Part shown: positions 28,397 to 61,334 of the stretch, piece after piece
How positions within the stretch are numbered: the first letter of the stretch is position 1
Layout: every line of letters starts with the position of its first letter
Assembly (NCBI GenBank): GCA_963833975.1
Contig: CAWIAB010000004.1
Coordinates: 434,586-498,585, forward strand
Source of the DNA: an uncultured Actinomycetota bacterium
Lineage (GTDB): Bacteria; Actinomycetota; Actinomycetes; Propionibacteriales; Nocardioidaceae
Reading direction: 5' to 3'
DNA: 64,000 nt
Program-made: the position numbers and the translations under genes
Notes under the pieces: model-generated
The model's input: only the letters and a program-made list of their open reading frames with translations
What the model was told of the DNA's origin: nothing
Database searches by the model: none

Positions 28397-28417
28397 GTTG
28401 CGTGGTCACGTCGGTCC
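28397..28417 (+). repeat. solitary copy (E1) of the 22-bp GTTGAG...CCGGTCC repeat family, 3 nt after the nucS stop
   Basis: GTTGCGTGGTCACGTCGGTCC. 18/19 identical to 28912..28930 (14-nt perfect core GTGGTCACGTCGGT). About 15/21 identical to the array-unit sense form GTTGAGATGCCACTCCGGTCC. Confidence 0.55.
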
Positions 28418-28469
28418 GGTCCTGCCAGGTTGAAGCGTCACTTCCGTCCACTCTCTGACCGTCGAGGTG

Positions 28470-28871
28470 TCAGTTCGGTACGGCATGGCGCTGGACGAGC
28501 TCGATCGGGTTGCCGTCGAGATCCGCGACCCAGGCCACCCGCAGCGAGCCCTGGAGCCAGTCGTGCGGCTCGGACATCGAGAGGGCCCCCGCCGCCAGCA
28601 GCTCGGCGTAGGCGTGGTCGACGTCCTCGGTCCATAGACAGATCTCCATGGCGTTGCCGTCGGGCGACACGTCCAACCCATGGTCGGACCGCGCGGAAGC
28701 GACGTTCGCGATCCCCAGACAGAACCCGTCGAGACGCAGCTCGACGTGGATGGGCGAGCCTTCTCGAGGGGTCCGGAAGGACTCCTCGAACCCCAATCCG
28801 GTATAGAACGTCACAGACCGCTCGACATCGTCGACGTACATGTTGACCTGGGGACGGTGAAACGGTGCCAC
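28470..28871 (-). CDS. VOC family (glyoxalase/bleomycin-resistance fold) protein
   Basis: GTG at 28871 within ORF 28470..28961: VAPFHRPQVNMYVDDVERSVTFYTGLGFEESF...VAWVADLDGNPIELVQ. Confidence 0.7.
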   Translation of the reverse strand: MAPFHRPQVNMYVDDVERSVTFYTGLGFEESFRTPREGSPIHVELRLDGFCLGIANVASARSDHGLDVSPDGNAMEICLWTEDVDHAYAELLAAGALSMSEPHDWLQGSLRVAWVADLDGNPIELVQRHAVPN

Positions 28872-28911
28872 GTCTACCTCCACCTCGGTACGGTCGCGTC
28901 CTGGCCAACAT

Positions 28912-28963
28912 GTTGAGTGGTCACGTCGGTGCAGCAATGAGGGACCGGAGTGACCACTCAACC
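28912..28963. repeat. inverted pair (E2/E3) of the 22-bp repeat family forming a 12-bp-stem hairpin, 6 nt after the stop of the 28970..29869 gene
   Basis: Arms TTGAGTGGTCAC (28913..28924) and GTGACCACTCAA (28950..28961) with a 25-nt spacer. E3 (28942..28963, GGACCGGAGTGACCACTCAACC) is 19/22 to 20/22 identical to units of the 40.1-kb array. Confidence 0.65.
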
Positions 28964-28969
28964 TTAGGG

Positions 28970-29869
28970 TCAGAAGTCGCCGCCGCCGAAGTCGCCACCG
29001 CCGTCGAAACCACCGCCGTCGAAACCACCCCCGTCGAACCCGCCGCCATCGAAACCGCCGCCGTCATAGCCACTACCGTCGCCGCCGGACCCGCTGTCGT
29101 CGTACCCGCCCTGGTCCGAGCCCTGGTCCGAGCCTTGGTCGGAGCCGGCGTCATAACCCGCGTCGTAGCCCTGGTCGTATCCACCTCCGCCGTCGAACAG
29201 CCCACCCATCATGGTGCCGACGAACAACAGCTCCAACGGGAAGAACGCACCGAAATATCCCGCGGTCCACGGCTGGAAAGCCGGTCCTGCCTGCCAGTAC
29301 GGCACCCGCTGGGGCCCCACCATGACCTGGCGGGTCATCGGCTCCGCGCCCGAGGCAATTCGCTCCGCGTCGGCCGCGCAGACCGGCACCTCGCGTGGCG
29401 CCCCGCCCTCGGGCGACCAGGTGATGTCCTTGACCGAGGGACCGTGTTGGGGGTTGAAGAAGCAGGGCGAGCGACGTTGCGGAATCGGCTCGCCGGCTAC
29501 CCGGGCACGCACGCAGGTGACCGAGTATCGGCCATCCTCCAGGATCTCGGTGACGTGGCGGATCTGGTCGGGACGGGTGACGGCGGCGACCGACTCCTTG
29601 GCGGCCTCGTAGCCGTCCAGCGCGCGTTGATAGTCCTGCCTGGCGGTCGCATCGAGCTCGTGCCCCGCCAGGTCGACGTCCAGCTGACGGAGGTCGTCAC
29701 CGAACACCGTGACGTCCTCGTCCGCGGCCCTCTTGACCGCCTCGAGCTGCTCGGCAGAGATCCGCTCCCGCCGCTCCGCAGCCTCCCGGCTGGCGGTCCG
29801 CCCGCGAGACACGGCGCTGGCAATCCCGATGAGGGCGACGACGACCACCACCAGTAGTACCCAGATCAA
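28970..29869 (-). CDS. membrane-anchored protein with Gly/Asp-rich repetitive C-terminus
   Basis: Intact 299-aa ORF (TTG start). N-terminal TM MIWVLLVVVVVALIGIASAV, a second TM near the C-terminus, then (GGGFD)x4. Function unknown. Confidence 0.65.
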   Translation of the reverse strand: MIWVLLVVVVVALIGIASAVSRGRTASREAAERRERISAEQLEAVKRAADEDVTVFGDDLRQLDVDLAGHELDATARQDYQRALDGYEAAKESVAAVTRPDQIRHVTEILEDGRYSVTCVRARVAGEPIPQRRSPCFFNPQHGPSVKDITWSPEGGAPREVPVCAADAERIASGAEPMTRQVMVGPQRVPYWQAGPAFQPWTAGYFGAFFPLELLFVGTMMGGLFDGGGGYDQGYDAGYDAGSDQGSDQGSDQGGYDDSGSGGDGSGYDGGGFDGGGFDGGGFDGGGFDGGGDFGGGDF

Positions 29870-30024
29870 GAGTCCTCCGTCTCTATCCCGTCGACCAGCT
29901 CACCACCTCGTCGGCGCACCCCCACGAGACTGTGACGCCGGCCCCCCGTGTCCGTAACAGTGCACCACATATGCCCCGCCCGAAACCCGTTCGACCTCGA
30001 GCCGCACCTGCTCGCGGGGCAAGG

Positions 30025-30549
30025 TCAGGCGCCGGCGCTCGGCGGCGCCGTCGAGTCGCTGTCCGCGGAGCTCTGCTCCCGTGCGACGTACTCCTCGATG
30101 GCCTCGATGTCGGCCTTCGCGCGCTTCACGACCGTGAGCAGGTCGGACATCGTTGAGACCTCCTCGACCTGCTCTTTGATGAACCACTGGGTGAACTGGT
30201 CCGACGCGAAGTCGTTCTCGGCGCGAGCGATCGCGGTGAGCTCGTAGATCTGCTGGGTGACCCGCCGCTCCTGCGCGAGGGCGAGCTCGACCGGCGCGAC
30301 GATGTCGGCGAAGTCGTTGCGCGGTGCCCCCACCCCAGGGATCTCAACCGGCTCGTCCTGGTCGAGCAGGTACTGCACCATCATCATGGCGTGATCGCGC
30401 TCCTCGAGGGCCTGACGGTAGAAGAAGCCGGCCATCTGCGGCATGGTGAGCCCGTCGTAGTAGACGGCGCACGCGACGTACTGCTGGTGTGCTGCGAACT
30501 CGTTGCCGATCTGCAGGTTGAGCTGGTCGACGAACTTCCTCGAGGCCAT
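30025..30549 (-). CDS. ferritin (non-haem, BfrB/Ftn-like)
   Basis: ATG at 30549 follows AGGAG. Sequence MASRKFVDQLNLQIGNEFAAHQQYVACAVYY...ALEERDHAMMMVQYL...QERRVTQQI...FIKEQVEE carries ferroxidase-centre E/H residues. Confidence 0.85.
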   Translation of the reverse strand: MASRKFVDQLNLQIGNEFAAHQQYVACAVYYDGLTMPQMAGFFYRQALEERDHAMMMVQYLLDQDEPVEIPGVGAPRNDFADIVAPVELALAQERRVTQQIYELTAIARAENDFASDQFTQWFIKEQVEEVSTMSDLLTVVKRAKADIEAIEEYVAREQSSADSDSTAPPSAGA

Positions 30550-30598
30550 ACGGATACTCCTGAGAGCAGCTCGGAACGGCACCAGCGGGTGTCAGGTG

Positions 30599-30617
30599 CC
30601 AAGTTAGGCATACCTTA
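30599..30617. promoter_or_regulatory. candidate IdeR/DtxR iron box
   Basis: CCAAGTTAGGCATACCTTA matches 13/19 of the consensus TTAGGTTAGGCTAACCTAA as I recall it. It lies in the 91-bp divergent gap between the ferritin gene and the small Cys-rich ORF. Confidence 0.35.
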
Positions 30618-30640
30618 GCAGCGTTGGTTATGCTCATCCG

Positions 30641-30832
30641 GTGGCGGCGAAGCATCCCAAGCGAAAGTGCTGCATCAGCAGACCGAAGTGCAAACGCTGC
30701 CCCTTGCGGATGATGGCCGACGGAACGCTGCCACCGGGCTTCACCGTCAAGAAGCGCAAGCTGGTCAAGGTCAAGAAGATCAAGAAGTCGGCAAAGGGAT
30801 CCGGCCGAGGCAGCATCCCGAAGGCCGCCTAG
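30641..30832 (+). CDS. small basic Cys-rich protein (63 aa)
   Basis: GTG-start ORF VAAKHPKRKCCISRPKCKRCPLRMMADGTLPPGFTVKKRKLVKVKKIKK... with a CC-x6-C-x2-C cluster. Codon usage is coding-like and it is divergent from the ferritin gene. No strong SD. Confidence 0.45.
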   Translation: MAAKHPKRKCCISRPKCKRCPLRMMADGTLPPGFTVKKRKLVKVKKIKKSAKGSGRGSIPKAA

Positions 30833-30850
30833 CCCGACCGCGGACTGCCT

Positions 30851-31462
30851 TCACACCGGCACGTCGGCCCACGTGCGCAGGAGCCAGCCGTCGGCATCCA
30901 CGTCCAGCTCGCAGGTCGCGCAGTTGTTCAGCGGCCGGCCGCGGGCATAGTCGCGGGGCACGTTGCTGGCCAGCATCGGCAGGGTCACGCCGATCGCTCC
31001 ACCGTGGCTCACCACCAGCACGGTCTCGCCGCGGAACTGGTCTGCTGCGGATTCGAGCTCACCGCTCATCCGCCGTACGACATCCTCGCCGGTCTCCGCA
31101 TCGGGAGCCGACGCGGTCAGATCCCCGTCGATCCAGCGCTGGAAAACCGGGTCGAAGATCCCGCGAGGATCCGGCAGCCCCGCGAAGCCTCCGACCGAGG
31201 CCTCCCGCAGGTCATGACGAACGCGGACCGGCGCTCCGAGCACGGCCGCGACGATCTCGGCGGTCTGGACCGCGCGAGACATGTCGCTGCACCAGATCGC
31301 CGCCAGTCGACGATCCGCGAGCCGGCCCGCGAGCTCCGCGGCCTGGCGGCGGCCGAGATCCGTCAGCCATCCACCATCGTCGCTCGCGATGCCGATCACG
31401 TCATAGGTCGCCTCGCCATGGCGGGCGACCACCAGCGTGGCCGGGCAGAACAGGTCGGACAT
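30851..31462 (-). CDS. histidine phosphatase (phosphoglycerate mutase) family protein
   Basis: Intact 203-aa ORF with the RHGE motif (VVARHGEATY) and a later SHGG. Confidence 0.85.
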   Translation of the reverse strand: MSDLFCPATLVVARHGEATYDVIGIASDDGGWLTDLGRRQAAELAGRLADRRLAAIWCSDMSRAVQTAEIVAAVLGAPVRVRHDLREASVGGFAGLPDPRGIFDPVFQRWIDGDLTASAPDAETGEDVVRRMSGELESAADQFRGETVLVVSHGGAIGVTLPMLASNVPRDYARGRPLNNCATCELDVDADGWLLRTWADVPV

Positions 31463-31497
31463 CGAGCCACTCTAACCTCAGTCGATAGGGTCGGTGC

Positions 31498-32661
31498 ATG
31501 GCCGATCTGCAGGTTCGCGACCTGGTACCCGACGACCACGACGCGGCGCTTGACGTGCGCACGCGATCGTTCGGTCCCCTCTCCGATGGCGGCCGGGCGT
31601 GGTGGCGCGAGCATTTCGAGCGCAACATCGCCGCGCACCGTGGGCTCGGCGTGTTCGCAGACGACAAGGTCGTAGCGATGGCACGGATCCACGGGTACCG
31701 ACAGCTCTGGGGTGGCCGGGCCCTTCCGATGGCCGGCATCGCCGGCGTCGTGGTGGCCCCCGAATGGCGCGGTCGAGGGGTCGCGCGGATGCTTATGATC
31801 GCGGCGATGCAGCGGTCCATCGAGCTGGGCGATGTCGTGTCGGTGCTCTTCCCGGCCGTCTCTACGCCGTACCGGCGTCTTGGCTGGGAGATGGCCGGAG
31901 CAGTGACGAGAACGACGCTGCCGGCGGACGCGCTTCGTCGGCTCGGCGCCCCGGCGGTCCCGGTACGGCGAGCCGGCATCCAGGACACGGACGAGATCGT
32001 TCGGCTGGTCCAGCGTGAGGGGCGCCGCACCCACGCTAGTGGCCCCTTGGAGCTGACGGTCGATGACGTGACCGAGCTGTTGTCGGATGCGGACAACTTC
32101 TGCTACCTCACCAACGACGGCTTCGTTGCCTATGCCTGGCACGAGAACGACCTGCGCGTGGAGCGGCTGGTAGCCGAGAGCCCCGAGACGATCAGGGCGT
32201 TGTGGGCCTTGGTGGGCTCCGGAGCCTCGATCGTCCGTCAGGTCTACACCTACCTCCCCACCCATGACCCGATCCACTGGTTCCTTGACGAGAAAGCGAG
32301 AACCGAGATTCAGGAGGAGCGGTGGATGTTGCGGCTTCTCGACGCGCCGGCAGCGATCGCCGGCCGCGGCTATCCCGCCGGCCTCGACGCGGACGTAGCG
32401 GTCACTCTGGTCGACCCCTGGCTCGCAGGCTGTGGGGGCTCCTTCCGGCTGCGCGTGAGCGCCGGGTCAGGCGAGCTGCGTCCGACCGACCCGGACTCGG
32501 ACGCGGTCGTGCTCGGCCCGAACGGCATGGCGGCCTTGTATGCCGGGACTCCGATGTACACCGTGCGCGCTGCCGGCCTCGCGACCGGCGGCCACCCCGA
32601 CGACGACGCCCTCCTCGACGCGGTCTTCGCCTCGCGCTGTTACCTCATCGACAGCTTCTGA
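31498..32661 (+). CDS. Eis-like GNAT N-acetyltransferase with sterol-carrier-like C-terminal domain
   Basis: Intact 387-aa ORF with the acetyl-CoA motif VVAPEWRGRGVARMLM. Length and architecture are typical of Eis-family proteins. Confidence 0.75.
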   Translation: MADLQVRDLVPDDHDAALDVRTRSFGPLSDGGRAWWREHFERNIAAHRGLGVFADDKVVAMARIHGYRQLWGGRALPMAGIAGVVVAPEWRGRGVARMLMIAAMQRSIELGDVVSVLFPAVSTPYRRLGWEMAGAVTRTTLPADALRRLGAPAVPVRRAGIQDTDEIVRLVQREGRRTHASGPLELTVDDVTELLSDADNFCYLTNDGFVAYAWHENDLRVERLVAESPETIRALWALVGSGASIVRQVYTYLPTHDPIHWFLDEKARTEIQEERWMLRLLDAPAAIAGRGYPAGLDADVAVTLVDPWLAGCGGSFRLRVSAGSGELRPTDPDSDAVVLGPNGMAALYAGTPMYTVRAAGLATGGHPDDDALLDAVFASRCYLIDSF

Positions 32662-32721
32662 TCAGGCCCAGTATCGACCGGCCGGCTTGCGCATGTCTTA
32701 CCGCCTCGGGACCATGAGGAC

Positions 32722-34131: not shown

Positions 34132-34133
34132 AC

Positions 34134-37706: not shown

Positions 37707-37712
37707 GCACTA

Positions 37713-37770: not shown

Positions 37771-39000
37771 CTACAGCTCGGTCAGGCGGCGTTGCAACAG
37801 GCGTCGCTCAGGCTGCCCGGAGGGAGCAAGATGGAGCGCCTCGAGATAGGCGTCTCGCGCCTCATCGGTCAAGCCCAGCCGGCGTAGGAAGTCTGCACGC
37901 GCAGCCGGCAGCAGGTAGTAGCCGGCGAGCGCGGTGGCATCCAGCGCGTCAAGCTCAGCCAGGCCGGCGTTGAAGCCATCGCGGAACCCGACGGCGATGG
38001 CCCGGTTCAAGGCGATCACGGGTGACGGTTGGGTCGCGTAGAGAGCGTCGTACAGGCTGACGATCGTGCGCCAGTCAGTGACCTCAGCCTTCGGCGCCCC
38101 GACATGGCAGGCAGCAATCTGGGCCTGGAGTCGGTAGGGTCCGGGCGGTCGTCCCGAGCGAGCCGCTCGATACAGGTCACGCCGCCCGGCCTCGATGAGG
38201 GACGCATCCCAGCGGCCGCGGTCCTGCTCCTCCATCGGGACAAGGTCGCCGCGGGCATCGAACCGGGTCGAGCGCCGAGCCAGCTGCAACGTGACCAACG
38301 CCAACAGTCCGAGAGCCTCGTCCTCACGGGGCATCAGGTCGACCAGCAACCGGGTCAGCTCCAGCGCCTCGCCCGCGAGCTGGTCGTCGTACTGGCCATA
38401 GCCCTGGTTGAAGATCAGATAGAGCACGATCAGCACGCCGGCAGTGCGCTCGGGGAGCAGCTCCTCGGGTGGCACCCGATACGGGATGGCTGCGTTGGAG
38501 ATCTTTCGCTTGGTCCGCAACAGGCGTTGCGACATGGTGGCCTCGGAAACCAGGAACGCGCGGGCGATCTCGGCGGTGCTCAGGCCGCCCACCGTCTTCA
38601 GCGTCAACGCCACCCGACCCTCGAGGGCGAGTGCCGGATGACAGCAGGTGAAGATCAACCGCAGCCGGTCATCGGTCCCAGGCGCATCCTCGTCTGCAGC
38701 ACCCCGGGCAGCCTCATCCAAGATCGCTCGCTGCTGGAGCTTTGCACGTTCGGTCGTGCGGCGACGCAGGACGTCGAGTGCCCGGTTCCTGGCTACTGTC
38801 GTGAGCCAGGCCGCCGGTGACCGCGGCACCCCGTCACCGGGCCAGACCATGAGGGCCTTCTCGACCGCATCCTGCACGCAGTCCTCGGCCAGGTCCCAGT
38901 CGCCAGTGAGCCTGATCAGGGTCGCGACCATGCTGGCGCGTTCCGCTGCCACGGCCGAGGCTGCTGCCTCGGCCGTGGCCTGGTGTGCGTCCGTGGTCAA
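37771..39000 (-). CDS. ECF-type sigma-70 factor with long C-terminal TPR-like extension (ECF42-like)
   Basis: Intact 409-aa ORF with sigma region 2 (DLAEDCVQDAVEKAL...WLTTVARNRALDVLRR) and region 4 (LSTAEIARAFLVSEATMSQRLLRTKRKI), plus about 220 extra C-terminal residues. Confidence 0.8.
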   Translation of the reverse strand: MTTDAHQATAEAAASAVAAERASMVATLIRLTGDWDLAEDCVQDAVEKALMVWPGDGVPRSPAAWLTTVARNRALDVLRRRTTERAKLQQRAILDEAARGAADEDAPGTDDRLRLIFTCCHPALALEGRVALTLKTVGGLSTAEIARAFLVSEATMSQRLLRTKRKISNAAIPYRVPPEELLPERTAGVLIVLYLIFNQGYGQYDDQLAGEALELTRLLVDLMPREDEALGLLALVTLQLARRSTRFDARGDLVPMEEQDRGRWDASLIEAGRRDLYRAARSGRPPGPYRLQAQIAACHVGAPKAEVTDWRTIVSLYDALYATQPSPVIALNRAIAVGFRDGFNAGLAELDALDATALAGYYLLPAARADFLRRLGLTDEARDAYLEALHLAPSGQPERRLLQRRLTEL

Positions 39001-39341
39001 TCCTCGTCAGTCCAGAACGGACGGATCTCGAGCTTCCCGCCGTTGGCTTGCGGGTGCCGTGCAGCGATCTCGATGGCTTCGTCCAAGTTGTCGCACTCCA
39101 AGATGTCGAAGCCGGCGATCCACTCTTTCGACTCGGTGAACGGGCCATCGGTGACCAGCACCTGCCCTCGGCTGATCCTGACCGTGGTGGCGTCGCTGAC
39201 TGGACGTAGCCGGTCGCCGGTGAGGCGTTTCCCCCGACCGTCGACATCATCCAGCCACTGCTCGATGGTCAGCTCATCGGCTATCGGCTCTGCCTCGGCA
39301 GCCGCCGCGGGGTCGGAAACGACGAACATCATGTATTTCAT
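38997..39341 (-). CDS. YciI/DGPF family protein
   Basis: Intact 114-aa ORF; AGGAG lies 8 nt before the ATG. The stop overlaps the sigma-factor start. Sequence MKYMMFVV...DGPFTESKEWIAGFDILECDNLDEAIEIA. Confidence 0.8.
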   Translation of the reverse strand: MKYMMFVVSDPAAAAEAEPIADELTIEQWLDDVDGRGKRLTGDRLRPVSDATTVRISRGQVLVTDGPFTESKEWIAGFDILECDNLDEAIEIAARHPQANGGKLEIRPFWTDED

Positions 39342-39380
39342 GGGTTTGCACTCCTGGCTAGGTTGTCTTGACGAAGATAC

Positions 39381-39408
39381 GACGATCGGGAGACGTACGG
39401 ATCCGACA
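39381..39408 (-). promoter_or_regulatory. ECF-type promoter-like motif TGTCGGAT-N16-CGTC upstream of the yciI-sigma operon
   Basis: Sense strand: TGTCGGAT (39408..39401), a 16-nt spacer, then CGTC (39384..39381), 40 nt before the ATG at 39341. Motif assignment is from memory of ECF autoregulated promoters, so confidence is low. Confidence 0.3.
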
Positions 39409-39434
39409 CGTCGGGTCAGCAGAATCCATGACGA

Positions 39435-39926
39435 CTACAGCACCACCCATTGACGGCCGTCGATCAGCTCTCGTACGGCGTCGAGATGTCCGGCGTGTAC
39501 GGCGGTCTCGGTGATCACATGCATCATCACCGAGCGCAGATCCGGGAACTCCATGCCCCAGCTGGCCCATTCTGGATCGGGCCGCTTCGGAGCGGCGTCC
39601 ATGGCCGTCACCGCCAGGATCTCGTCGGCGCGGCGAATCTCCCCCCGGTACGCCTCTACGACTGCATCGGCGGGCTCGTCCGGCCCGACCAGCCAGTCGC
39701 CGTTCGGCTCCTTCGGAAAGTAGTCGAGCGATTCGCCAGCGACGACGCAGCGAAACCAGTAGTGCTCGTCTGACAACGCCAGATGCTGGACGAGGCCAAG
39801 ACAGCTCCAGCCTGAAGGGAGCACCGGTCGGCGTAGCTGCTCATCCGACAGACCCTCCAGGCTGCCGAGCACATGCCGGCGTTGCGCGTCCAGCTGCCCG
39901 CGGAGTACGGCTCTCTCGCGGCTCAC
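39435..39926 (-). CDS. DinB-family (mycothiol-transferase-like, DUF664) protein
   Basis: Intact 163-aa ORF: LDAQRRHVLGSLEGLSDEQLRRPVLPSGWSCLGLVQHLA...ETAVHAGHLDAVRELIDG. Confidence 0.8.
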   Translation of the reverse strand: MSRERAVLRGQLDAQRRHVLGSLEGLSDEQLRRPVLPSGWSCLGLVQHLALSDEHYWFRCVVAGESLDYFPKEPNGDWLVGPDEPADAVVEAYRGEIRRADEILAVTAMDAAPKRPDPEWASWGMEFPDLRSVMMHVITETAVHAGHLDAVRELIDGRQWVVL

Positions 39927-40071
39927 CGGTGAGGCTCCGTCGTACGGCGAGACGTTGGGCCTGGCCTATGCGTACCAATCGAGTCGACCATCGTGCGTCC
40001 TTCCGTTGTCAGTGTCACCTACCAATCGACGTACGGGACAGGTCCTGATCCGACAGCCGTTGCTGGAAAAC

Positions 40072-40247
40072 GGACCGAACTGGCAGCTCAACCCGGCCGG
40101 ACTGGCATCTCAACCGGACCGGAGTGGCATCTCAACCGGACCGGACTGGCATCTCAAGCGGACCGGAGTGACATCTCAACCGAACCGGAATGACATCTCA
40201 ACCGGACCGGAGTGACATCTCAACCGGAGCCGGACTGGCAGCTCAAT
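40072..40247. repeat. tandem array of eight 22-bp units (consensus + strand GGACCGGACTGGCATCTCAACC)
   Basis: Units at 40072, 40094, 40116, 40138, 40160, 40182, 40204 and 40226, read directly. Variants are TGGCAT / TGACAT / TGGCAG. It overlaps the 3' end of the meaA-like ORF. Confidence 0.9.
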
Positions 40248-42251
40248 CCGGGGCAGGGAGTGGAAGAGGCGGATGATGTTGGTGATCTGGGCGATGATCG
40301 CGGTCAGCCCGAAGTCCTTGGGGGTGAAGACCGCAGCGACGCCCGACGCGATGAGCTGGGCAGCGTCCGCGGCCGGCACGATCCCACCCACCACGACCGG
40401 GATCTCGCCCGCGCCGGCCTCCCGCAGACCTCTCACGATCGCCGGCACCAGCTCCAGATGTGAGCCCGAGAGGATCGAGATCCCGACGCAGTGCACATCC
40501 TCTGCGACTGCGGCCGCCACGATCTCCTCCGGGGTCAACCGGATCCCTTGGTAGATGACCTCGAAGCCGGCGTCTCTGGCCCGGACCGCGACCTGCTCTG
40601 CCCCATTGCTGTGACCGTCCAGCCCGGGCTTGGCGACGAGCAACCGCAGCCGACCCCCGAGCTGTTCACCGGTCTCGCGCACCAGGCTCCTGAGCGCCGT
40701 CAGCTCGGCTCCCGCACCCGGCGCAGTGACGACACCACCTACCCCGGTCGGTGCGCGGTACTCGCCGAACACCTCGCGCAGCACACCCGCCCACTCCCCC
40801 GTCGTCGCCCCGGCTCGGGCGGCCGCGATGGTGGCGGGCATCAGGTTCTCCGCGGTCTTTGCCTGTTCGCGAAGCCGGTCGAGCGCCGTTGCGACGGCCA
40901 CGGCGTTCCGCTCGGCGCGCCAGCGGCCGAGGGAATCCAATGCGGCGCGCTCAGCCTCCGGGTCGGACGCCTGGATCGCGGCGTCGAGGTCCACCGTCAA
41001 CGGCGAGACCTCGCTCTCCACGAACGCGTTGACACCGACCACGATGTCCTCTCCGGACTCGATGCGCGCCAGACGGAGTGCGTGTGATGCCACGAGCGCC
41101 TGCTTGAGGTAGCCGGACTCGACCGCCGCGACCGCTCCGCCCATCGCCTGGATCCGGTCCATCTCGGCGGTGATGGCCTGCACCAGCTCGGCGACCTTCG
41201 CCTCGACCACGCGTGACCCGTCGAAGAGATCGTCGTACTCGAGCAGGTCGGACTCGAAGGCCAGCACCTGCTGAAGGCGCAGGGACCATTGCTGGTCCCA
41301 GGGGCGGGGCAGTCCGAGGGCCTCGTTCCAGGCCGGGAGCTGCACGGCTCGGGCGCGGGCCTCTTTCGACAGGGTCACGCCGAGCATCTCGAGGACGATG
41401 CGCTGGACGTTGTTCTCCGGCTGAGCCTCCGTGAGACCCAGGGAGTTCACCTGCACGCCGTAGCGGAACCGGCGTTGCTTCGTATCCTCGATGCCGTAAC
41501 GCTCACGGGTGAGGCTGTCCCACAGCACCGCGAACGCGCGCATCTTGCACATCTCTTCGACGAAACGCACCCCTGCGTTGACGAAGAACGACATCCGCCC
41601 GACCACCTCGCCGAACCGCGCGGTCGGCACCTGCCCCGAGTCGCGAACGGCATCCAGGACGGCGATCGCCGTGCACAACGCGAAGGCCACCTCCTGGACC
41701 GGCGTCGCGCCAGCCTCCTGTAGGTGGTAGCTACAGACGTTGATGGGGTTCCACTGCGGCATCTCCGCCACGGTGTAGGTGATCAGATCCGTCGTCAGCC
41801 GAAGTGACGCCTCCGGGGGGAATACATACGTCCCCCGCGAGAGGTACTCCTTGATGATGTCGTTCTGGGTCGTCCCGGTCAGCAGCCGCGGGTCGGCGCC
41901 CTGCTCCTGCGCCACGATCTGGTAGAGCGCCAGCAGCCACATCGCGGTGGCGTTGATCGTCATGGACGTGTTCGTCTCGGCGAGCGGGATCGAGTCGAAG
42001 AGCCGGCGCATCTCCCCGAGGTGCGGTATCGGCACACCGACCCTGCCTACCTCGCCGCGAGCCAGTGGCGAGTCGGGGTCGTAGCCGGTCTGTGTCGGCA
42101 GGTCGAATGCGACCGAGAGACCGGTCTGACCCTTTGCGAGGTTGCCCCGGTACAGCGTGTTCGAGCCTTGCGCGGAGCTGTGGCCGGCGTAGGTGCGCAT
42201 CACCCACGGCTGGTCACGCTGTGCCGCTTTCGGCTGCGGTTCCGCGGTCAT
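40176..42251 (-). CDS. ecm: ethylmalonyl-CoA mutase-type (MeaA/Ecm) B12-dependent acyl-CoA mutase, fused catalytic and B12-binding domains
   Basis: Intact 691-aa ORF. PWVMRTYAGHSSAQGSNTLYRGNLAKGQTGLSVAFDLPTQTGYDPDSPLARGEVGRVGVP...NTSMTINATAMWLLALY closely matches MeaA as I recall it. The C-terminal DxHxxG B12 motif (GLDGHSNG) is present. The last roughly 24 codons and the stop are encoded by the repeat array. Confidence 0.85.
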   Translation of the reverse strand: MTAEPQPKAAQRDQPWVMRTYAGHSSAQGSNTLYRGNLAKGQTGLSVAFDLPTQTGYDPDSPLARGEVGRVGVPIPHLGEMRRLFDSIPLAETNTSMTINATAMWLLALYQIVAQEQGADPRLLTGTTQNDIIKEYLSRGTYVFPPEASLRLTTDLITYTVAEMPQWNPINVCSYHLQEAGATPVQEVAFALCTAIAVLDAVRDSGQVPTARFGEVVGRMSFFVNAGVRFVEEMCKMRAFAVLWDSLTRERYGIEDTKQRRFRYGVQVNSLGLTEAQPENNVQRIVLEMLGVTLSKEARARAVQLPAWNEALGLPRPWDQQWSLRLQQVLAFESDLLEYDDLFDGSRVVEAKVAELVQAITAEMDRIQAMGGAVAAVESGYLKQALVASHALRLARIESGEDIVVGVNAFVESEVSPLTVDLDAAIQASDPEAERAALDSLGRWRAERNAVAVATALDRLREQAKTAENLMPATIAAARAGATTGEWAGVLREVFGEYRAPTGVGGVVTAPGAGAELTALRSLVRETGEQLGGRLRLLVAKPGLDGHSNGAEQVAVRARDAGFEVIYQGIRLTPEEIVAAAVAEDVHCVGISILSGSHLELVPAIVRGLREAGAGEIPVVVGGIVPAADAAQLIASGVAAVFTPKDFGLTAIIAQITNIIRLFHSLPRIELPVRLRLRCHSGPVEMSFRFG

Positions 42252-46747: not shown

Positions 46748-47956
46748 TCAGGGAGCCTCGACCTGCTCGGGCAGCAGGACCTGCCGCTCATGGGTTCCGG
46801 AGCCCACCTGACCGTACTTGTTGTAGCCCCAGCACCAGAGCGTCTGGTCCGCGCCGAGACCACAGGTGTGGACGTTGCGCACCACGACCTGAGAGGCCCA
46901 GTGGCGGGCTCCGCCGAGCACCCGCGTCGGGAGGGCCTGCGAATGCCGGTTGCCGTTTCCGAGCTCACCCTTGAAGTTCTCACCCCAGCACCAGGCGCTG
47001 CCGTTCGCCCTGGTGCCGCACGTCGTCGCCGAGCCTGCGGTGACCGACCTCCAACCGCGACTGCCGCCGACCTGCACCGGCGTGAGCCGCTCGACGGTGG
47101 TGCCGTCGCCCAGCTGACCGCGCGCGTTCAGGCCCCAGCACCAGAGGGTGCCGTCGGTCTTGCTGGCGCAGGTGTAGCCGCTACCGGCGGACTCCGCGAC
47201 CCAGTCGGAGTCACTGCCGATCCGCTCCGGCTCGAGTGCCGTCTCGGTCGTCCCGTTGCCGAGGTCGCCCGACCCCCAGCACCAGAGGCTGCCGTCCGCC
47301 TGAGTGCCGCAGGAGCGAGCGTTGCCGGCGCTGATCGAGGTCCAGTCGGACGTGCTGCCCACCTGGGTCGGGGTGCGCCGGTCATCCTGGGTGCCGTCCC
47401 CCACCTGCCCGGCCGCGTTCTCGCCCCAGCACCACGCGGTGCCGTCGGTGTGCAGCCCGCACGTGTGGGAGTCGGTCTCATACCCCGTACCACCGTTGCT
47501 GCCGCTCACCGACGCCCAGTCCGTCGCGGTCCCGATCCGCTCCGGCGTCCGGGCGATGGCGGTCTGCCCGTCGCCGAGCTGGCCGTGGTCGCCGCGACCC
47601 CAGCACCAGAGCGTGCCGCCTGTGGGTATGGCACAGCCGGAGTTGTGCCCGGCCATGACGAACACCCAGTCAGTGCGCGTTCCGACCTGCACAGGTTGAA
47701 ACTGCCACGACTTGTCCCTGCCGGTGCCGAGCTCCCCGGACTTGTTCGGACCCCAGCACCACAGCGTGCCGGTCTGCTGGATGCCACACGAGTGCCAGGT
47801 ACCCACCGCGACCGAGGCCCAGGCGCCGGCCTTCGGCGATGCAACTTCGGCCCGCCCTTGATCCCCCTGGGCGGACTGGGCCCAGGACAAGGTCGCCGAG
47901 AAGAGAGCGGTGGCGGCAAGGGTGCTGATCAGGACGACGCGAGAACGCTTACGCAT
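46748..47956 (-). CDS. secreted RCC1-repeat (beta-propeller) protein
   Basis: ATG at 47956 follows GGGGAGAG (within ORF 46748..48013). Signal peptide MRKRSRVVLISTLAATALFSATLSWAQSAQG. Seven RCC1-type repeats (HSCGxxxxGTLWCWGxNxxGELGTG). Confidence 0.85.
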   Translation of the reverse strand: MRKRSRVVLISTLAATALFSATLSWAQSAQGDQGRAEVASPKAGAWASVAVGTWHSCGIQQTGTLWCWGPNKSGELGTGRDKSWQFQPVQVGTRTDWVFVMAGHNSGCAIPTGGTLWCWGRGDHGQLGDGQTAIARTPERIGTATDWASVSGSNGGTGYETDSHTCGLHTDGTAWCWGENAAGQVGDGTQDDRRTPTQVGSTSDWTSISAGNARSCGTQADGSLWCWGSGDLGNGTTETALEPERIGSDSDWVAESAGSGYTCASKTDGTLWCWGLNARGQLGDGTTVERLTPVQVGGSRGWRSVTAGSATTCGTRANGSAWCWGENFKGELGNGNRHSQALPTRVLGGARHWASQVVVRNVHTCGLGADQTLWCWGYNKYGQVGSGTHERQVLLPEQVEAP

Positions 47957-54711: not shown

Positions 54712-54753
54712 TTGCCTCTCTTCACAGAATCCCGCTCTCCGGTGACCCGTCGC

Positions 54754-55020: not shown

Positions 55021-55145
55021 AACGTCCGTGGCTCCTTGTCGTCCTGTGCTCGGGTCCCGGACGGGGTGCCGGACCGAGATTGCTTCGTGTTGCCGGTGTG
55101 CTGCGGTGGTGCGGGTGGGTCGTACCAGCGCCTGAGCCAGGAGGC

Positions 55146-56359: not shown

Positions 56360-56404
56360 CTGTCTGCCTTCCGTATACGCGGGGACCGCTGACTCGGTGT
56401 CGGG

Positions 56405-56662: not shown

Positions 56663-56828
56663 GGCCGAGGTCTGTGTGTGCAGCCCCTGCGTCGAGCTGC
56701 TGCAGGAGGGGCTCCAAGCCTACAAAGGACCTGGCTCGGACCGGTGAGCGGTCCACGGAACTGGTCGTCATGTCGGCGGCCATCCTCGATAGGTCGGTGG
56801 TGGATCTAGGGAGGTAATCTGCTTGTGA

Positions 56829-56859
56829 AATTTAGCACAAGCACCTGAGAGATTGCCAA
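56829..56859 (-). promoter_or_regulatory. candidate atp operon promoter (-35 TTGGCA, extended -10 TGcTAAATT) in an AT-rich island
   Basis: Sense strand: TTGGCA (56859..56854), a 19-nt spacer, then TAAATT (56834..56829). This is the most AT-rich stretch of the window, about 165 nt upstream of atpZ, overlapped by the inverted repeat CTTGTG-N8-CACAAG (56822..56841). Confidence 0.4.
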
Positions 56860-56872
56860 TTCTGACCCCTGG

Positions 56873-58024: not shown

Positions 58025-58677
58025 CAGTCGGGCTCGGCGACCTCGAGGTTGCTGACCACGGCACGCAGCGCCTCTACGTCGATCACACCCTGTCGCCGGA
58101 CGATGAGGATGTCGGTGGTGGCATCGACGATCGTGGAAGGGATGGCACCCGGGGTCGGACCCGAGTCGAGGTAGACGTCCACTGCCTCACCGAGCATCTC
58201 CTGGGCGTGCGTGACGGTGAGCGGGGCCGGCAGCCCGGTGGTGTTGGCGCTGCTGACCGCGAGGGGACCGGTGTCACCCAACAGTGTGAGGGCGTCCTCG
58301 TGGTCCGGGACGCGCATCGCGACCGTGCCTCGGCTGTCGCCCAGGTCCCACCGCAGGCTGGACTGCTGCCGGAAGATCAGGGTCAGCCCGCCCGGCCAGA
58401 AGGCGTCGGCGAGCTCGCGCGCCTCCACCGTGACTCCCGTGGCGAGCGCAGGGAGCACCTCAGCGCTGGCGATCAGCACCGGGATCGGCATGTTGCGGCC
58501 CCGGCCCTTCGCGCGCAGCAGGCGGCGCACCCCGGTCGGGTCGAAGGCGTCGGCGGCGATGCCGTACACGGTGTCCGTCGCCAGGACCACCAGCCCGCTG
58601 CGGTTGAGTGAGTCCTTCGCGCGGGTCAGGCCATCCGTGCGCTGGGCCGGGTCGAGCAGGGAGAAGAGGTCGCTCAC
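58024..58677 (-). CDS. L-threonylcarbamoyladenylate synthase (YrdC/Sua5 family)
   Basis: GTG at 58677 overlaps the prmC stop (GTGA): [10 protein letters not shown]...GLVVLATDTVYGIAADAF...GGLTLIF...LAVSSANTTG. The longer track ORF (to 58779) overlaps prmC. Confidence 0.8.
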   Translation of the reverse strand: MSDLFSLLDPAQRTDGLTRAKDSLNRSGLVVLATDTVYGIAADAFDPTGVRRLLRAKGRGRNMPIPVLIASAEVLPALATGVTVEARELADAFWPGGLTLIFRQQSSLRWDLGDSRGTVAMRVPDHEDALTLLGDTGPLAVSSANTTGLPAPLTVTHAQEMLGEAVDVYLDSGPTPGAIPSTIVDATTDILIVRRQGVIDVEALRAVVSNLEVAEPD

Positions 58678-59570
58678 AGGTCCATGGTGCCAGCCGGGCG
58701 GGATCGACGGGCCACTCGGCGCGCAGTCACGAACCGGGGCCGGCCGGCCAGGTCGCGATGGTCGCGGACGCTGCGCCAAGCCGGCAGCGCGGAGAAGACC
58801 GTGGGAGCGGACTCGTGCTGGACCTCGGCATGCTCGCAGAGCAGCAGGCCGCCGTCGACCAGGAGTCTGGCGGCGACCTCGGCGACCACCCGAGTCGCAT
58901 CCAGCCCGTCCTGGCCCGACCAGAGCGCCTCTGCTGGGTCGTGGTCGCGTGCCTCGGGTTCGACCGACTCGAAGGCTTCGAGGGGGATGTACGGCGGGTT
59001 GGCGGTGACCACGTGGACGGTGCCCGCGAGGTCGTCCACCGCGTGCGCCATGTCGCCGAGCCGGACGTCGACACCGAAGGGTGCCGCGTTGCGTACGGCG
59101 AAGGCGTAGGCCGGCTCCGCGATCTCCACCGCGGTGACCCGAGTCCGCGGCGCCTCGGTTGCCAGTGCGGCCGCGATGGCGCCAGAGCCGGCGCAGAGGT
59201 CGACGGCGACCGGGTGCTCGACGCCATCAACCACCAACCGGACCAGCTCCTCGACCGCCTGACCGGCAAGGATCTCGGTCTCCGGGCGGGGGACGAAGAC
59301 ACCTGGTCCGACGACGATGTCCAGGTGGCGGAAGCCGGCCAGGCCGGTCAGATGCTGGAGCGGTTCGCGCGCCGCTCTCCTCGACACCAAAGTCGCCGCG
59401 GCCGCCAGGTCCGCCGCGTCCAGGGCGGTCTCGCGGGTGTAGAGCGCAGCTCGCGTCGTACCGAGCACGAAGGCCAGCAGCGCCTCCGCGTCGTGACGCG
59501 GTGACGGCACCCCCGACTCGGCTAGTCGACGCGTCGCGTCGTCGAGGAAGTCCCGGGTGCCGTCCCTCAC
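58674..59570 (-). CDS. prmC: peptide chain release factor N5-glutamine methyltransferase
   Basis: GTG at 59570 overlaps the prfA stop (GTGA): ...[31 protein letters not shown]...[13 protein letters not shown]...VTANPPYIP. The rest of ORF 58674..60500 is a shadow of prfA. Confidence 0.85.
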
Positions 59571-60655
59571 GAGGGGGACGACTCGACCGCTGCCAGCCGG
59601 TCGGCCAGGTCGGCGTCCACGCAGGCGTCGATGACAGCCTGCAGATCGCCCTCGAGCACGTGGTCGAGGTTGTGCGCCTTGAAGCCCACCCGGTGGTCGG
59701 TGATGCGGTTCTCGGGGAAGTTGTACGTGCGGATGCGCTCGGACCTGTCGACGGTCCGGATCTGTGAGCGGCGGGCCGTGCTCGCCTCCGAGGCCGCCTC
59801 CTCCTCGGCCATGGCCAGCAGCCGCGAGCGCAGGACACGCATGGCCTGCTCGCGGTTCTGCAGCTGGCTCTTCTCGTTCTGGCACGAGACGACGGTGCCG
59901 GTCGGCAGGTGGGTGATCCGGACGGCGGAGTCGGTGGTGTTGACGCTCTGGCCCCCGGGTCCCGACGAACGGAACACGTCGATCCGCAGGTCGTTCTCGT
60001 CGATGGTGACGTCGATCGGCTCGGCCTCCGGCATCACCAGCACCCCTGCGGCGGAGGTGTGGATCCGGCCCTGGGACTCGGTCACCGGCACTCGTTGGAC
60101 CCGGTGGACACCGCCCTCGAACTTCAGCTGCGCGTACGGCGCCTCGCCGGGCGCTGGTGTCCCCTTCGCCTTGACCGCGACGGTCGCGCTCTTGACCCCG
60201 CCCAGGTCGCTCGGCGCCTCGTCCAGCAGCTCGACCTTCCAGCCGCGGTTCTCGGCGTACCGGGTGTACATCCTCAGCAGGTCCCCGGCGAACAGCGCTG
60301 ACTCCTCGCCGCCCTCGCCGGCCTTGATGTCGAGGATGGCGTCCTTCTCGTCGATCGGGTCGCGCGGCACGAGAAGCCGCCGCAGCCGCTCCTCGAGCTC
60401 CTGCCGGTGCAGGTCCAGGCGGCCGGCCTCGGCAGCGAACGACTCGTCGTCGGCGCCGAGCTCGGTCGCGGCCTCGAGGTCCTCGAGGGTGGTCTGCCAC
60501 TCGTGGTAGGTGTTGACCACCGCGGTCAGAGCGGCGTACCGCTGGTTCAGCCGGCGCGAACGTGTCTGGTCCGAGAAGAGGTCAGGGTCGGCCAGCTGGA
60601 CCTCGAGCGAAGCGTGCTCGTCGACCAGTGACTGCACGGCCTCGAACATGAGCAC
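59567..60655 (-). CDS. prfA: peptide chain release factor 1
   Basis: Intact 362-aa ORF with PAT-type recognition region and GGQ motif ([24 protein letters not shown]). Confidence 0.95.
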
Positions 60656-60708
60656 TCACTTCCACTTCACTCGCCAGCTCGAATCTTGCCTGTGGGACAC
60701 ATGACAGC

Positions 60709-60745
60709 GGCGCCGACCCGCTCGCCGGAGCGATGGGTCGGCGCC
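60709..60745 (-). terminator. GC-rich stem-loop between rpmE and prfA (terminator or attenuator-like, no U-tract)
   Basis: GGCGCCGACCC (60709..60719) pairs with GGGTCGGCGCC (60735..60745). An inner stem CGCTC/GAGCG adds to it. It starts 10 nt after the rpmE stop. Confidence 0.4.
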
Positions 60746-60754
60746 GATGCGTCG

Positions 60755-60976
60755 TTACTTTGCAGCAGCAGTCTTCTTGGCGTAGCGGGCTTGGAAGCGC
60801 GCAACGCGACCGCCGGTGTCGAGGATCTTCTGCTTGCCGGTGTAGAACGGGTGGCAGTTCGAGCAGACGTCGGCATGCATCGTGCCGCTGGTCGCCGTAC
60901 TGCGGGTCGTGAACGTGTTTCCACAGGTACAGGTGACCTGCGTCTCCGCGTACGCGGGGTGGATGTCCTTCTTCAT
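60755..60976 (-). CDS. rpmE: 50S ribosomal protein L31 (Zn-ribbon type)
   Basis: ATG at 60976: [27 protein letters not shown]...[17 protein letters not shown]. The upstream part of ORF 60755..61222 reads through the repeats and is not coding. Confidence 0.9.
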
Positions 60977-61126
60977 GGGTGTTCCTCTCGAGTATCGGCC
61001 GCTGGGTCGCCACCACCGAGTCAGCGGGACGTGAACCAGAACCATCGGAGATTGTGCCACTCCTACCCCCTCCAAGCCCAAATCCCCTGCCAATATTCCC
61101 TCCCGCCGAGTCCCCCTCCACCCCCC

Positions 61127-61334
61127 GTTGAGATGCCACTCCGATCGTGTTGAGATGCCACTCCGGACGTGTTGAAATGCCGATCCAGTTGGCATCTCAA
61201 CCGGACCGGACTGGCATCTCAACCAGACCGGACTGGCATCTCAACCAGACCGGACTGGCATCTCAACCAGACCGGACTGGCATCTCAACCAGACCGGACT
61301 GGCATCTCAACCGGACCGGACTGGCATCTCAACG
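61127..61334. repeat. bipartite array of the 22-bp repeat: about 3 inverted units followed by 7 direct units
   Basis: Inverted units: 61127..61148, 61149..61170 and 61171..61188 (GTTGAGATGCCACTCCG...). Direct units: a partial unit at 61189..61202, then 61203, 61225, 61247, 61269, 61291 and 61313 (each 22 bp). The four at 61225..61312 are identical (AGACCGGACTGGCATCTCAACC). The last unit supplies the gpx stop codon. Confidence 0.9.

Follow-up and report, generated by a model that had tools for sequence, protein, structure and literature searches.

What kind of element is a 22-bp sequence that recurs at gene ends, against stop codons, and what could it do there? The question was raised by the window (the whole stretch of DNA analysed here, 64,000 nucleotides from a soil actinobacterium of the Nocardioidaceae), in which a first-pass annotation had described one element of about 22 bp at four places. 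The element was confirmed by TRF, a pattern search and a PWM. TRF identified 22-bp arrays at 40071-40251 (8.1 copies, 86% match), 61127-61181 (2.5 copies) and 61190-61333 (6.5 copies, 98% match). A search with the consensus GGTTGAGATGCCAGTCCGGTCC, allowing at most three mismatches, returned 13 matches confined to the two arrays, and 100 shuffles returned none. The PWM was derived from array units and the window was scanned at >8 bits. Such matches were found at the four loci only; shuffled windows contained about 5.5 of them, randomly scattered. Under permutation, the similarity claimed for the solitary copies stood for the unit at 28942-28963 (minus strand), which beat every shuffle (25.4 bits vs a null maximum of 19.2), but the diverged units at 28396, 28428, 28460 and 28911 were each borderline when taken alone. 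For the cluster next to nucS, made of three same-strand units within 86 bp at an exact spacing of 32 bp, the chance expectation estimated from the PWM null hit rate is ~3e-6. The 22-bp repeat family common to all four sites is real and far above chance.

The unit consensus over the four sites is nGTTGAGnTGyCnnTCCGGnnn. The 5' half of the module (GTTGAG-n-TG-y-C) is conserved, with GTTGAG as the best-conserved segment, and the 3' half around TCCGG is more variable. All arrays repeat every 22 bp, apart from one 23-nt step (40204 to 40227) in the 40-kb array, and the units of the window arrays abut with no spacers between them. A site consists of one copy, of a head-to-tail array, or of an array beside the gene with an inverted arm at its far end. 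Units stay alike within one array, and unit sequence and copy number vary between species; the likeness inside one array is, judging by the sequences compared, that of concerted evolution. For 17 of the 24 unit variants, a tandem array has a TGA in each of the three reading frames. GTCGAG units, which make up 13% of the distinct units and have no TGA, were counted against the explanation preferred below. Short palindromes are present in some subfamilies (e.g. GCCGG-T-CCGGC, GGCCC-TCC-GGGCC), and the 3' half, these palindromes included, is not conserved between subfamilies. Fourfold tandems of the 24 variants folded like tandems of shuffled units (z between -1.6 and +1.4). Since the units have no structure of their own, hairpins are formed by opposed arms only. 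The repeat matched no Rfam family, either at the gathering threshold over the whole window or at an E-value threshold over 61050-61400, and literature searches found no description of it, in agreement with the first-pass annotation, which had not recognised it. The stop-codon repeat family is previously undescribed and has its own architecture, though it is akin to known bacterial extragenic repeats.

The most elaborate of the four sites lies between gpx and rpmE:

61181 to 61334, minus strand: gene-proximal array of seven units (TRF, pattern search, sequence reading)
61126 to 61191, plus strand: opposed arm of three units, CGTTGAGATGCCACTCCGATCG and variants (inverted repeats I9-I17, 81-84% complementary)
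60997 to 61045, minus strand: L31-Actinobacteria ribosomal leader upstream of rpmE (Rfam RF03158, 43.1 bits)

The stop codon of gpx (TGA, 61329-61331) is the TGA within the CGTTGAG of the first unit. As 61126-61191 is inverted with respect to 61181-61334, the locus is a giant hairpin and not a single array. Of the two tandem arrays previously proposed for the window, that at 40 kb is indeed head-to-tail, but that at 61 kb is made of two opposed arrays, 7 vs 3 units. The opposed arms form an imperfect hairpin of ~65 bp, with an RNA fold of -161.9 kcal/mol (z = -13.4). Alignment with the related locus L034 showed that they occupy the gap from the gpx stop to the conserved rpmE promoter and leader. 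L034 itself carries 6 + 6 units, with the gpx stop inside the first one, followed by the same promoter and leader. The spacer is occupied in other species whose Gpx is 72-79% identical, and in L035 a solo unit lies 1 nt past the TAA. A terminator scan of 60900-61450 detected no terminator-like site with a T-run, and the sequences past the stems are G-rich.

The second array lies on the 3' end of meaA:

40072 to 40248, minus strand: head-to-tail array of eight units without opposed arm (TRF, pattern search, ORF list)

The first 72 nt of the array are read in the meaA frame, which is closed by a TGA belonging to one of the units (40176-40178). MeaA is accordingly annotated with a 24-residue tail in the source genome, and the database copy of the protein (P0001) includes the array-encoded tail. 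Tails of the form ..PVEMPLRSG are found in the closest relatives only. The array ends 145 nt before the MST start. The same gene end is occupied in other species with 84-89% identical MeaA; L007, L008, L010 and the window have arrays of 2.7 to 8 units, and L009 has a degenerate copy. The RNA fold of this one-directional array is not unusual (z = -1.9); the best-conserved site thus has no significant structure, which indicates that the hairpin is not the whole story. At this meaA stop, L031 carries an array whose sequence is unrelated but whose period is again 22 bp, a hint that sequence matters less than period and position.

The remaining units are found at two neighbouring gene ends:

28396 to 28417, plus strand: degenerate unit E1, CGTTGCGTGGTCACGTCGGTCC (PWM 10.1 bits)
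28428 to 28449, plus strand: degenerate unit U2, GGTTGAAGCGTCACTTCCGTCC, 32 bp after E1 (PWM 14.2 bits)
28460 to 28481, plus strand: degenerate unit U3, CGTCGAGGTGTCAGTTCGGTAC, 32 bp after U2 (PWM 17.3 bits)
28911 to 28932, plus strand: unit E2, TGTTGAGTGGTCACGTCGGTGC, far arm of a hairpin pair (PWM 11.7 bits)
28942 to 28963, minus strand: unit GGTTGAGTGGTCACTCCGGTCC, gene-proximal arm of the hairpin pair (PWM 25.4 bits)

E1 begins 2-3 nt beyond the nucS stop (TAG, 28391-28393), and U3 overlaps the stop (28470-28472) of a convergent VOC/glyoxalase gene (ORF list; Pfam Glyoxalase). The single copy that had been reported after nucS must therefore be replaced by three degenerate units at 32-bp spacing. 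E1 and E2 are diverged, as previously described; they are identical at 19 of 22 positions and have the exact 14-mer GTGGTCACGTCGGT in common. The gene-proximal arm starts 6 nt from the TGA (28970-28972) of a 299-aa gene. It agrees with the units at 40160 and 40204 at 20 of 22 positions, within the 19-20/22 given before for units of the 40.1-kb array. The inverted pair was recognised correctly; its perfect stem is 13 bp (28912-28924 with 28950-28962) instead of 12 bp, and its RNA fold has a z of -3.9.

The family is not confined to the window, contrary to a possibility that the first-pass annotation had left standing. About 20 further loci following the same stop-codon rule were found in related Nocardioidaceae contigs. 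A metagenome scan gave 19 loci, and seven contigs of the metagenome Ga0209796 hold at least nine array sites. All window sites and the ~20 related loci are located at gene 3' ends, including those of meaA, gpx, nucS and a heme A synthase-like gene. The GTTGAG end either coincides with the stop codon of the gene that runs into the array or follows that codon by 0-12 nt, so that the orientation reported for either strand holds in the window and in the relatives alike. In a hand tally, GTTGAG pointed toward the stop of a high-GC3 ORF in ~28 of ~28 gene-adjacent arms, with none reversed, and the stop was the unit's own TGA or TAG in about seven independent cases. GTTGAG faced outward in 11/11 independent inverted arrangements, among the inverted pairs being a REPIN-like one in L008 (17516-17554), and orientation switched once at most per locus. 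Opposed arms folded with z values of -13.4, -15.3 and -3.9, and stems reached ~65-120 bp.

Other species also carry the repeat at three of the four window sites. At nucS, this is a remnant unit in the adjacent spacer of one relative (L030, between a 290-aa gene and nucS). Comparison of array lengths, which had been suggested at the outset, revealed variation at meaA (2.7 to 8 units), at gpx (7 + 3 vs 6 + 6) and between L013 and L023, whose flanks are near-identical and which carry 3 vs 2 units, a difference of one 22-bp unit. Metagenome contigs assembled from short reads may misstate copy numbers, and several arrays are located at contig ends.

With moderate confidence, the sequence comparisons are best explained by a clade-specific, gene-oriented 3'-end repeat of Nocardioidaceae that would expand by slippage and whose opposed arms would serve as 3'-end barriers. 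Replication slippage or unequal recombination may account for the growth and shrinkage of arrays. If a site has an opposed arm, the transcript of the upstream gene would fold into a long imperfect hairpin starting from the stop codon. On the basis of these predicted folds, the probable role of the opposed arms is that of a barrier at the transcript 3' end, whether by termination or pausing, by protection from 3' exonucleases, or by insulation of the next promoter (gpx from rpmE). Since the unit TGA gives stops in three frames within 66 nt (17/24 variants), overrun into an array should cost a short C-terminal tail only. One-directional arrays would be arms without a partner and may have no role at the RNA level. 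The barrier function is weakened by the absence of a U-tract after any of the hairpins and by the terminator scan, which detected no site.

An alternative that we regard as unlikely is a non-autonomous mobile element, the module being inserted at a TTGA- or GTTGA-like target by an enzyme encoded elsewhere, such as a RAYT, an IS200/IS605-like single-strand transposase or another nuclease or recombinase. Insertions at stop codons alone would survive, self-targeting would create arrays of exact period, and effects on transcripts would be secondary. The target of IS200/IS605 insertion is a stretch of 4-5 nt on single-stranded DNA, and the element lands 3' of it; RAYTs recognise a tetranucleotide that is conserved on the 5' side of REPs. 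The conservation peak at the 5' GTTGAG is consistent with such a mechanism, as are the frequent exact coincidence of gene stops with the unit TGA, the strictly strand-specific orientation relative to that TGA, the exact 22-bp period of every array and the scattering of the family over many unrelated gene ends. Y1 transposases recognise a hairpin, however, and the units have none of this kind. No transposase was found among the ~40 window ORFs, as the first-pass annotation had stated for RAYT and IS200-like enzymes; this is weak evidence, because a RAYT gene is usually single-copy per genome. The occupation of three sites at the same gene ends across species points to old residents and not to recent hops. 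GTTGAG follows the native stop at a distance of 1-12 nt in about two thirds of the junctions, which argues against a single precise target, and no target-site duplication is evident.

A device acting at the level of translation was judged very unlikely. Ribosomes would terminate and re-initiate unit by unit, with a +1 frame shift each time, or the array would trap read-through or frameshifted ribosomes by its stops in three frames; in either form, the device would tie translation to the melting of the hairpin or the fate of the mRNA. The unit can be read as TGA-G-NTG, five sense codons and the next TGA, and 21 + 1 nt make up the 22-nt period. An ATG, TTG or GTG stands one nt after the TGA in 93% of distinct units, as position 8 is free and T9/G10 are nearly invariant, a conservation which is partly circular because T9, G10 and other positions were fixed by the search pattern and the PWM. 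C12, T15, G18 and G2, which rank among the best-conserved sites of the unit, are the second bases of the mini-ORF codons, and stops in three frames are offered by 17/24 variants. MIRUs have likewise been proposed to act through overlapping stop and start codons. Against such a device, solo and hairpin units often have no NTG (TGG, GCG, TCG, TCC or ACG instead), GTCGAG arms have no stop, the peptide that a unit would encode varies (MPVRSG for the window units, MPAWSG for those of L034), no Shine-Dalgarno-like sequence is present, and arrays do not end on downstream starts (the gap is 145 nt before MST in the window and 18 nt in L011). An element directed at stop codons appears quite unlikely, either as a translation-coupled 3'-end device, with its 22-nt period set by the succession of stop, one nt and start and with control over whether the giant hairpin forms, or through an enzyme targeting stops for module insertion; if true, it would define a new class of element and not another REP-like repeat.

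Also very unlikely is an array of protein-binding sites at the DNA level, with a nucleoid-associated protein, gyrase or a regulator bound to gene ends as IHF and gyrase are to BIMEs: the period of about two helical turns would place the sites on one helix face, and the strict 22-bp phasing across diverged subfamilies and the unrelated L031 meaA array, the half-site-like core, the short palindromes of some subfamilies and the conserved one-directional meaA array without RNA structure would all suit it, but it leaves unexplained the stop-codon start and the orientation to the upstream gene obeyed without exception by the ~28 hand-tallied arms, the 3' half with the palindromes is not conserved between subfamilies, and no candidate binding protein was identified.

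The arrays add encoded tails to annotated proteins such as MeaA, appear to break short-read assemblies, and would suit as VNTR markers for the clade. High-GC actinobacteria have few canonical terminators. CRISPR arrays were rejected as the units abut without unique spacers. Iterons, tandem repeats of about 17-22 bp at a replication origin beside an initiator gene, were rejected since no initiator gene lies close to the arrays, which are spread over the ends of many housekeeping genes. As in intrinsic or bidirectional terminators, the opposed arms form very stable hairpins right after stops, often between convergent genes. A canonical intrinsic terminator was rejected, as the hairpins have no U-tract and the scan of 60900-61450 was empty; moreover, the ~65-120 bp stems are built from modules, their sequence is common to unrelated genes, and one-directional arrays have no hairpin.

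The likeness to REP/BIME and MIRU elements suggested by the first-pass annotation holds for lifestyle (extragenic position, 3' ends, stop overlap, copy number) but not for membership. With MIRU/VNTR loci the family has in common direct intergenic tandem repeats, oriented with the flanking genes, overlapping stops and variable in copy number. MIRU units are 40-100 bp long and lie within operons, the last unit overlapping the start of the next gene. The family has a 22-bp period in every array, and it overlaps the upstream stop, but the next start is 145 or 18 nt off or the genes are convergent; MIRU membership was rejected on both points. Opposed arrays with long hairpins are common here, unlike in MIRUs. 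REP/BIME elements and Pseudomonas REPINs are similarly extragenic, at gene 3' ends, between convergent genes and a few nt from stops; they also occur as singles, inverted pairs (here 28911-28963 and L008 17516-17554) and clusters, and have a conserved 5' head. A REP unit is an imperfect palindrome of about 20-40 nt forming its own stem-loop, BIME clusters alternate the orientation of units with specific linkers, and a RAYT (Y1 transposase) gene flanked by repeats co-occurs with REP/REPIN. Membership was rejected since the 22-bp units are not palindromic (z between -1.6 and +1.4; 40-kb array z = -1.9) and the arrays are head-to-tail with a 22-bp period, not alternating. Orientation locked to the upstream gene further separates the family from REP/BIME.

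The closest known analogue, compared by description and not mentioned in the first-pass annotation, is TRIT, the Tuberculosis Rho-independent terminator motif (Gardner et al., 2011; RNIE, PMC3152330). This actinobacterial motif is strongly conserved, with many dispersed copies at gene termini, and its very narrow position distribution overlaps the stop codon, around -8; it is palindromic, bidirectional, devoid of a classical U-tract and restricted to Mycobacterium (PMC3152330). No more than 2-4% of the transcript 3' ends that have been mapped coincide with a predicted TRIT site (preprint 10.1101/2022.06.01.494293); by analogy, this low figure weighs against the barrier function of the 22-bp family. 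The 22-bp family likewise occupies a narrow window on or near stop codons, with GTTGAG at 0-12 nt or containing the stop, and it is likewise dispersed, lineage-restricted and without U-tract. TRIT is a single palindromic motif of Mycobacterium, whereas the Nocardioidaceae family is a non-palindromic module that makes hairpins through opposed copies and also forms head-to-tail arrays. Conserved, oriented by the gene, starting at the stop codon, persistent across species and able to build hairpins of 65-120 bp, it is a tangible candidate for a non-canonical 3'-end signal, and one that lends itself readily to manipulation, in parallel to the unexplained TRIT of mycobacteria.

The arrays of the window consist of 22-bp units whose sequence, in the sense of the upstream gene, is GGTTGAGATGCCAGTCCGGTCC or a close variant of it. 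The tandem arrays were delimited by TRF and further units by a position weight matrix (PWM) made from the array units. Pfam analysis identified NucS, VOC/glyoxalase, MeaA-type mutase, MST/DinB, GSHPx and L31 among the products of the flanking genes.

Repeat units and TRF arrays in the window
28396, 28428, 28460, plus strand: three diverged units, nucS 3' end
28911-28963, opposed: diverged unit at 28911 and solitary unit at 28942-28963, 3' end of the 299-aa gene
40071-40251, minus strand: 22-bp array, 8.1 copies, meaA 3' end
61127-61181, plus strand: 22-bp array, 2.5 copies, gpx|rpmE spacer
61190-61333, minus strand: 22-bp array, 6.5 copies, 98% matches, gpx 3' end

Searching the window with the consensus and up to three mismatches gave 13 matches, all within the two arrays at 40 and 61 kb, and none in 100 shuffles. 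The PWM exceeded 8 bits solely at the four loci of the first-pass annotation, while Markov shuffles of the window produced about 5.5 matches above this value, randomly placed (mean maximum 12.8 bits, extreme 19.2 bits). The solitary unit at 28942-28963 reached 25.4 bits and matches two units in the 40-kb array at 20 of 22 positions. The diverged units at 28396, 28428, 28460 and 28911 scored 10-17 bits each and are significant only jointly: the three located directly downstream of the nucS stop lie on one strand with an exact spacing of 32 bp, and those at 28396 and 28911 are 19/22 identical with an exact 14-mer in common. The proposed similarity of the solitary copies therefore did not vanish under permutation. 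The repeat family is real and statistically solid.

The GTTGAG end had been described as facing the upstream gene at its stop, and the same rule was found across related loci, with the stop 0-12 nt upstream of GTTGAG. Using ORFs with GC3 above 0.8 as gene proxy, a high-GC3 ORF was seen to read into the GTTGAG end of essentially every array. On four contigs from relatives or metagenomes (L016, L018, L019, L024) an apparent gap between stop and array is filled by one more degenerate unit. The gene stop is supplied by the TGA or TAG of the unit itself in some seven independent cases (window gpx, L013/L023, L020, L025, L026, L008-17516 and the meaA orthologues). By hand tally, every one of ~28 gene-adjacent arms has GTTGAG toward the gene, and all inverted arrangements (11/11 independent cases) have it outward. 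As annotated initially, orientation tracks the gene and not the chromosome strand: units are plus-strand at nucS, itself a plus-strand gene, and minus-strand at the three remaining window genes, all encoded on the minus strand. Convergent genes possess one arm each, hence the opposed arms; arrays with a promoter or gene start on their far side are nevertheless closed by a short inverted arm (window 61 kb, L011, L016/L024, L018, L026). Avoidance of the reverse orientation for lack of stops was also considered, but 62% of random GC-rich 22-mers are likewise stop-free in tandem, which makes this argument uninformative.

The meaA site was compared across species. The source is a member of the Nocardioidaceae, to judge by the organism names of MeaA homologues. 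At 85-89% MeaA identity, the 3' end of the gene carries at least 4 units in L007, 2.7 in L008 and 8 in L010. One decayed copy is left there in L009, and L030 has none. The source MeaA (P0001, 691 aa) has a 24-residue C-terminal tail, RIELPVRLRLRCHSGPVEMSFRFG, wholly encoded by the array (40176-40247), and the tails of relatives comprise 8-9 residues (PVEMPLRSG). In a set of 120 MeaA homologues, array-encoded tails of the form ..PVEMPLRSG are limited to the five closest, and all others end near ..IRxAHGL. This distribution indicates that the module has taken over the native meaA stop in one clade. Apparent single-base frameshifts occur in a neighbouring gene, and an assembly indel could account for a 23-nt step in the 40-kb array and hence for the extended tail of MeaA. 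The FadB-like 3-hydroxyacyl-CoA dehydrogenase gene (25873-27660, minus strand) aligns with its L009 orthologue in three different frames, which change near 27358, 27158 and 27032, and a 595-aa ORF is nonetheless open in one frame. These apparent single-base indels reflect either a pseudogene or assembly errors, and they bear on the judgement of 1-nt irregularities in the arrays.

The genes just 3' of the meaA array differ among relatives (window 37771-39926 compared with L008 12017-12111 and L030 11990-11996).

Genes downstream of the meaA array
Window and L010: MST/DinB, YCII, ECF sigma factor
L008 and L030: directly FR47 acetyltransferase
L009: peptidase S8
L031: AbiEi

In L031 a 22-bp tandem array of ACGATCCGAGAGTTTCGGCACC (11991-12091, 4.6 copies) begins 3 nt past the meaA TAA, and its reverse complement (13159-13271, 5.1 copies) adjoins the stop of a Pyr_redox gene, with an AbiEi_1 gene between the two. 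Period, position and opposed layout agree with the window family; the sequence does not. Membership in the family was rejected, as the best cyclic identity of 11-12/22 equals the null median, and the array may be either a diverged descendant or an independent array. Because a sequence-unrelated 22-bp array occupies the same meaA stop, this single case hints that sequence may be less important than period and position.

The gpx|rpmE site is also populated in relatives. In L034 (Gpx 79% identical), the gpx TGA lies within the first unit of an array of six, and a further six units in inverted orientation precede an almost identical rpmE promoter and leader; in L035 (Gpx 72% identical), a solo unit is located 1 nt past the TAA. 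The spacer between the 299-aa gene and nucS has kept a remnant unit in L030 (17284-17318) and is an empty site, TGAcccgTCA, in L009 (18665-18676). Units resemble each other more within an array than they resemble orthologues in other species (e.g. GATG vs GGTG vs GCTG), which indicates concerted evolution of units within arrays. The arrays of L013 and L023, whose flanks are near-identical, differ in length by a single unit.

The VOC/glyoxalase gene (28470-28871, minus strand) sits inside the repeat structure (28394-28969) between nucS and the 299-aa gene, flanked by the direct units at 28396 and 28911. It may have been inserted into, or by means of, the repeats. The flanking of gene cassettes by repeats, a layout also seen around the L031 AbiEi gene, is regarded as a lead only, since the MST-YCII-sigma insertion adjoining meaA has no unit at its far edge. 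Two sets of ~150-bp periodic repeats (22287-23155 and 46793-47800; families D2 and D3, inverted repeats I1-I8) are mutually similar on opposite strands. Synteny with the gene at 6283-7491 in L009 matches the second set to an RCC1-repeat (beta-propeller) gene.

A metagenome scan with a degenerate two-unit pattern yielded 19 loci of 66-72% GC, seven of them on contigs from one metagenome, with subfamilies that include GGTTGAGTTGCCGGTCCGGCGG, GGTTGAGTTGGCCCTCCGGGTC, CGTCGAGTTGCCACTCCGAGCC and GGTTGAGTCCCCACCTTGTGGG. The logo of 87 distinct units reads nGTTGAGnTGyCnnTCCGGnnn, partly constrained by the search pattern. The contig ends of L007, L019, L025 and L027 fall inside arrays, which suggests that short-read assemblies break at the repeats and that the copy numbers at these ends are minimum values; those from metagenome contigs are in general provisional. 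A scan of GTDB representative genomes, a set outside which the source genome lies, returned for GGTTGAGNTGNCANTCCGGTC just six single chance-level matches in unrelated taxa. Viral contigs contained no true member, both matches being forced by the search pattern. A protein-level census with the stop-free reverse-frame translation of the arrays (six-variant alignment) retrieved no protein at E <= 0.001. At the gathering threshold, Rfam detected only the L31 leader (60997-61045) in the whole window and assigned the arrays to no family; at an E-value threshold, the 61-kb hairpin gave only spurious miRNA-precursor matches.

The 61-kb locus had been annotated as one array. It is instead composed of minus-strand units (61181-61334) starting on the gpx stop and of plus-strand units (61126-61191) opposing them, and the position of the L31 leader shows that these opposed arrays occupy the whole interval from the gpx stop to the promoter and leader of rpmE. 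As gpx-strand RNA the locus is predicted to form a single long imperfect hairpin (-161.9 kcal/mol, z = -13.4), and the L034 counterpart reaches -194.9 kcal/mol (z = -15.3). The pair at 28911-28963 forms a perfect 13-bp stem (z = -3.9), and no structure was predicted for the one-directional 40-kb array (z = -1.9) or the three nucS units (z = +1.0). No U-tract, consensus terminator or promoter was found in 60900-61450. The unit itself is not a small REP-like hairpin or palindrome: when each of 24 unit variants was repeated four times in tandem, the folding was like that of shuffled units in tandem, and short palindromes occur in some subfamilies only. A separate hairpin of ~100 nt (15032-15129, minus-strand sense; -84.9 kcal/mol, z = -9.3) starts 12 nt past the meaB stop. 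Its arms include GTTTGAGTGGTGCACCACCCAAAC, a sequence that has TTGAGTGGT in common with the 28942-28963 unit. This hairpin may be distantly related to the family or may just represent an ordinary terminator-like palindrome.

To the observed position, orientation, cross-species persistence, copy-number change and hairpin potential of opposed arms, a mechanism may be added in which slippage or unequal exchange would expand and contract the arrays, and opposed arms would serve as a transcript barrier, stabiliser or insulator. The TGA borne by most units would make over-running the native stop nearly harmless; for 17/24 unit variants, a tandem array has a stop in each of its three frames. The main weakness of the hairpin reading is that meaA, the best-conserved site, has no hairpin. 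A mobile element with a stop-codon-like target seems unlikely; in line with the first-pass annotation, no transposase domain was found among ~40 window ORFs, a survey that hardly addresses the other megabases of the genome. The 22-bp period is the same in every array of the PWM and TRF scans, including the 19 metagenome loci. A phased array of DNA-binding sites is an improbable reading, and a chain of TGA-N-NTG mini-ORFs whose length would set the 22-nt period deserves equally little credence.

Among known systems, the comparison with REP/BIME and MIRU elements holds for the general kind, i.e. extragenic repeats at gene 3' ends, to which TRIT also belongs. It fails in detail: REP units are palindromic whereas the present units are not, and membership tests showed that the arrays fit neither BIME-like alternation nor CRISPR or iterons. 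The closest analogue is TRIT, a genus-restricted mycobacterial motif with 147 copies around -8 of stop codons (PMC3152330). Of the 3' ends that have been mapped, only 2-4% overlap predicted TRIT sites (preprint 10.1101/2022.06.01.494293), which by analogy would be a second weakness of the transcript-barrier reading. The literature search found no paper describing the arrays, and the family is apparently undescribed. It is unusual in combining a non-palindromic module of 22 bp, strict gene-relative orientation, stop-codon donation and opposed tandem arms with hairpins of 65-120 bp.
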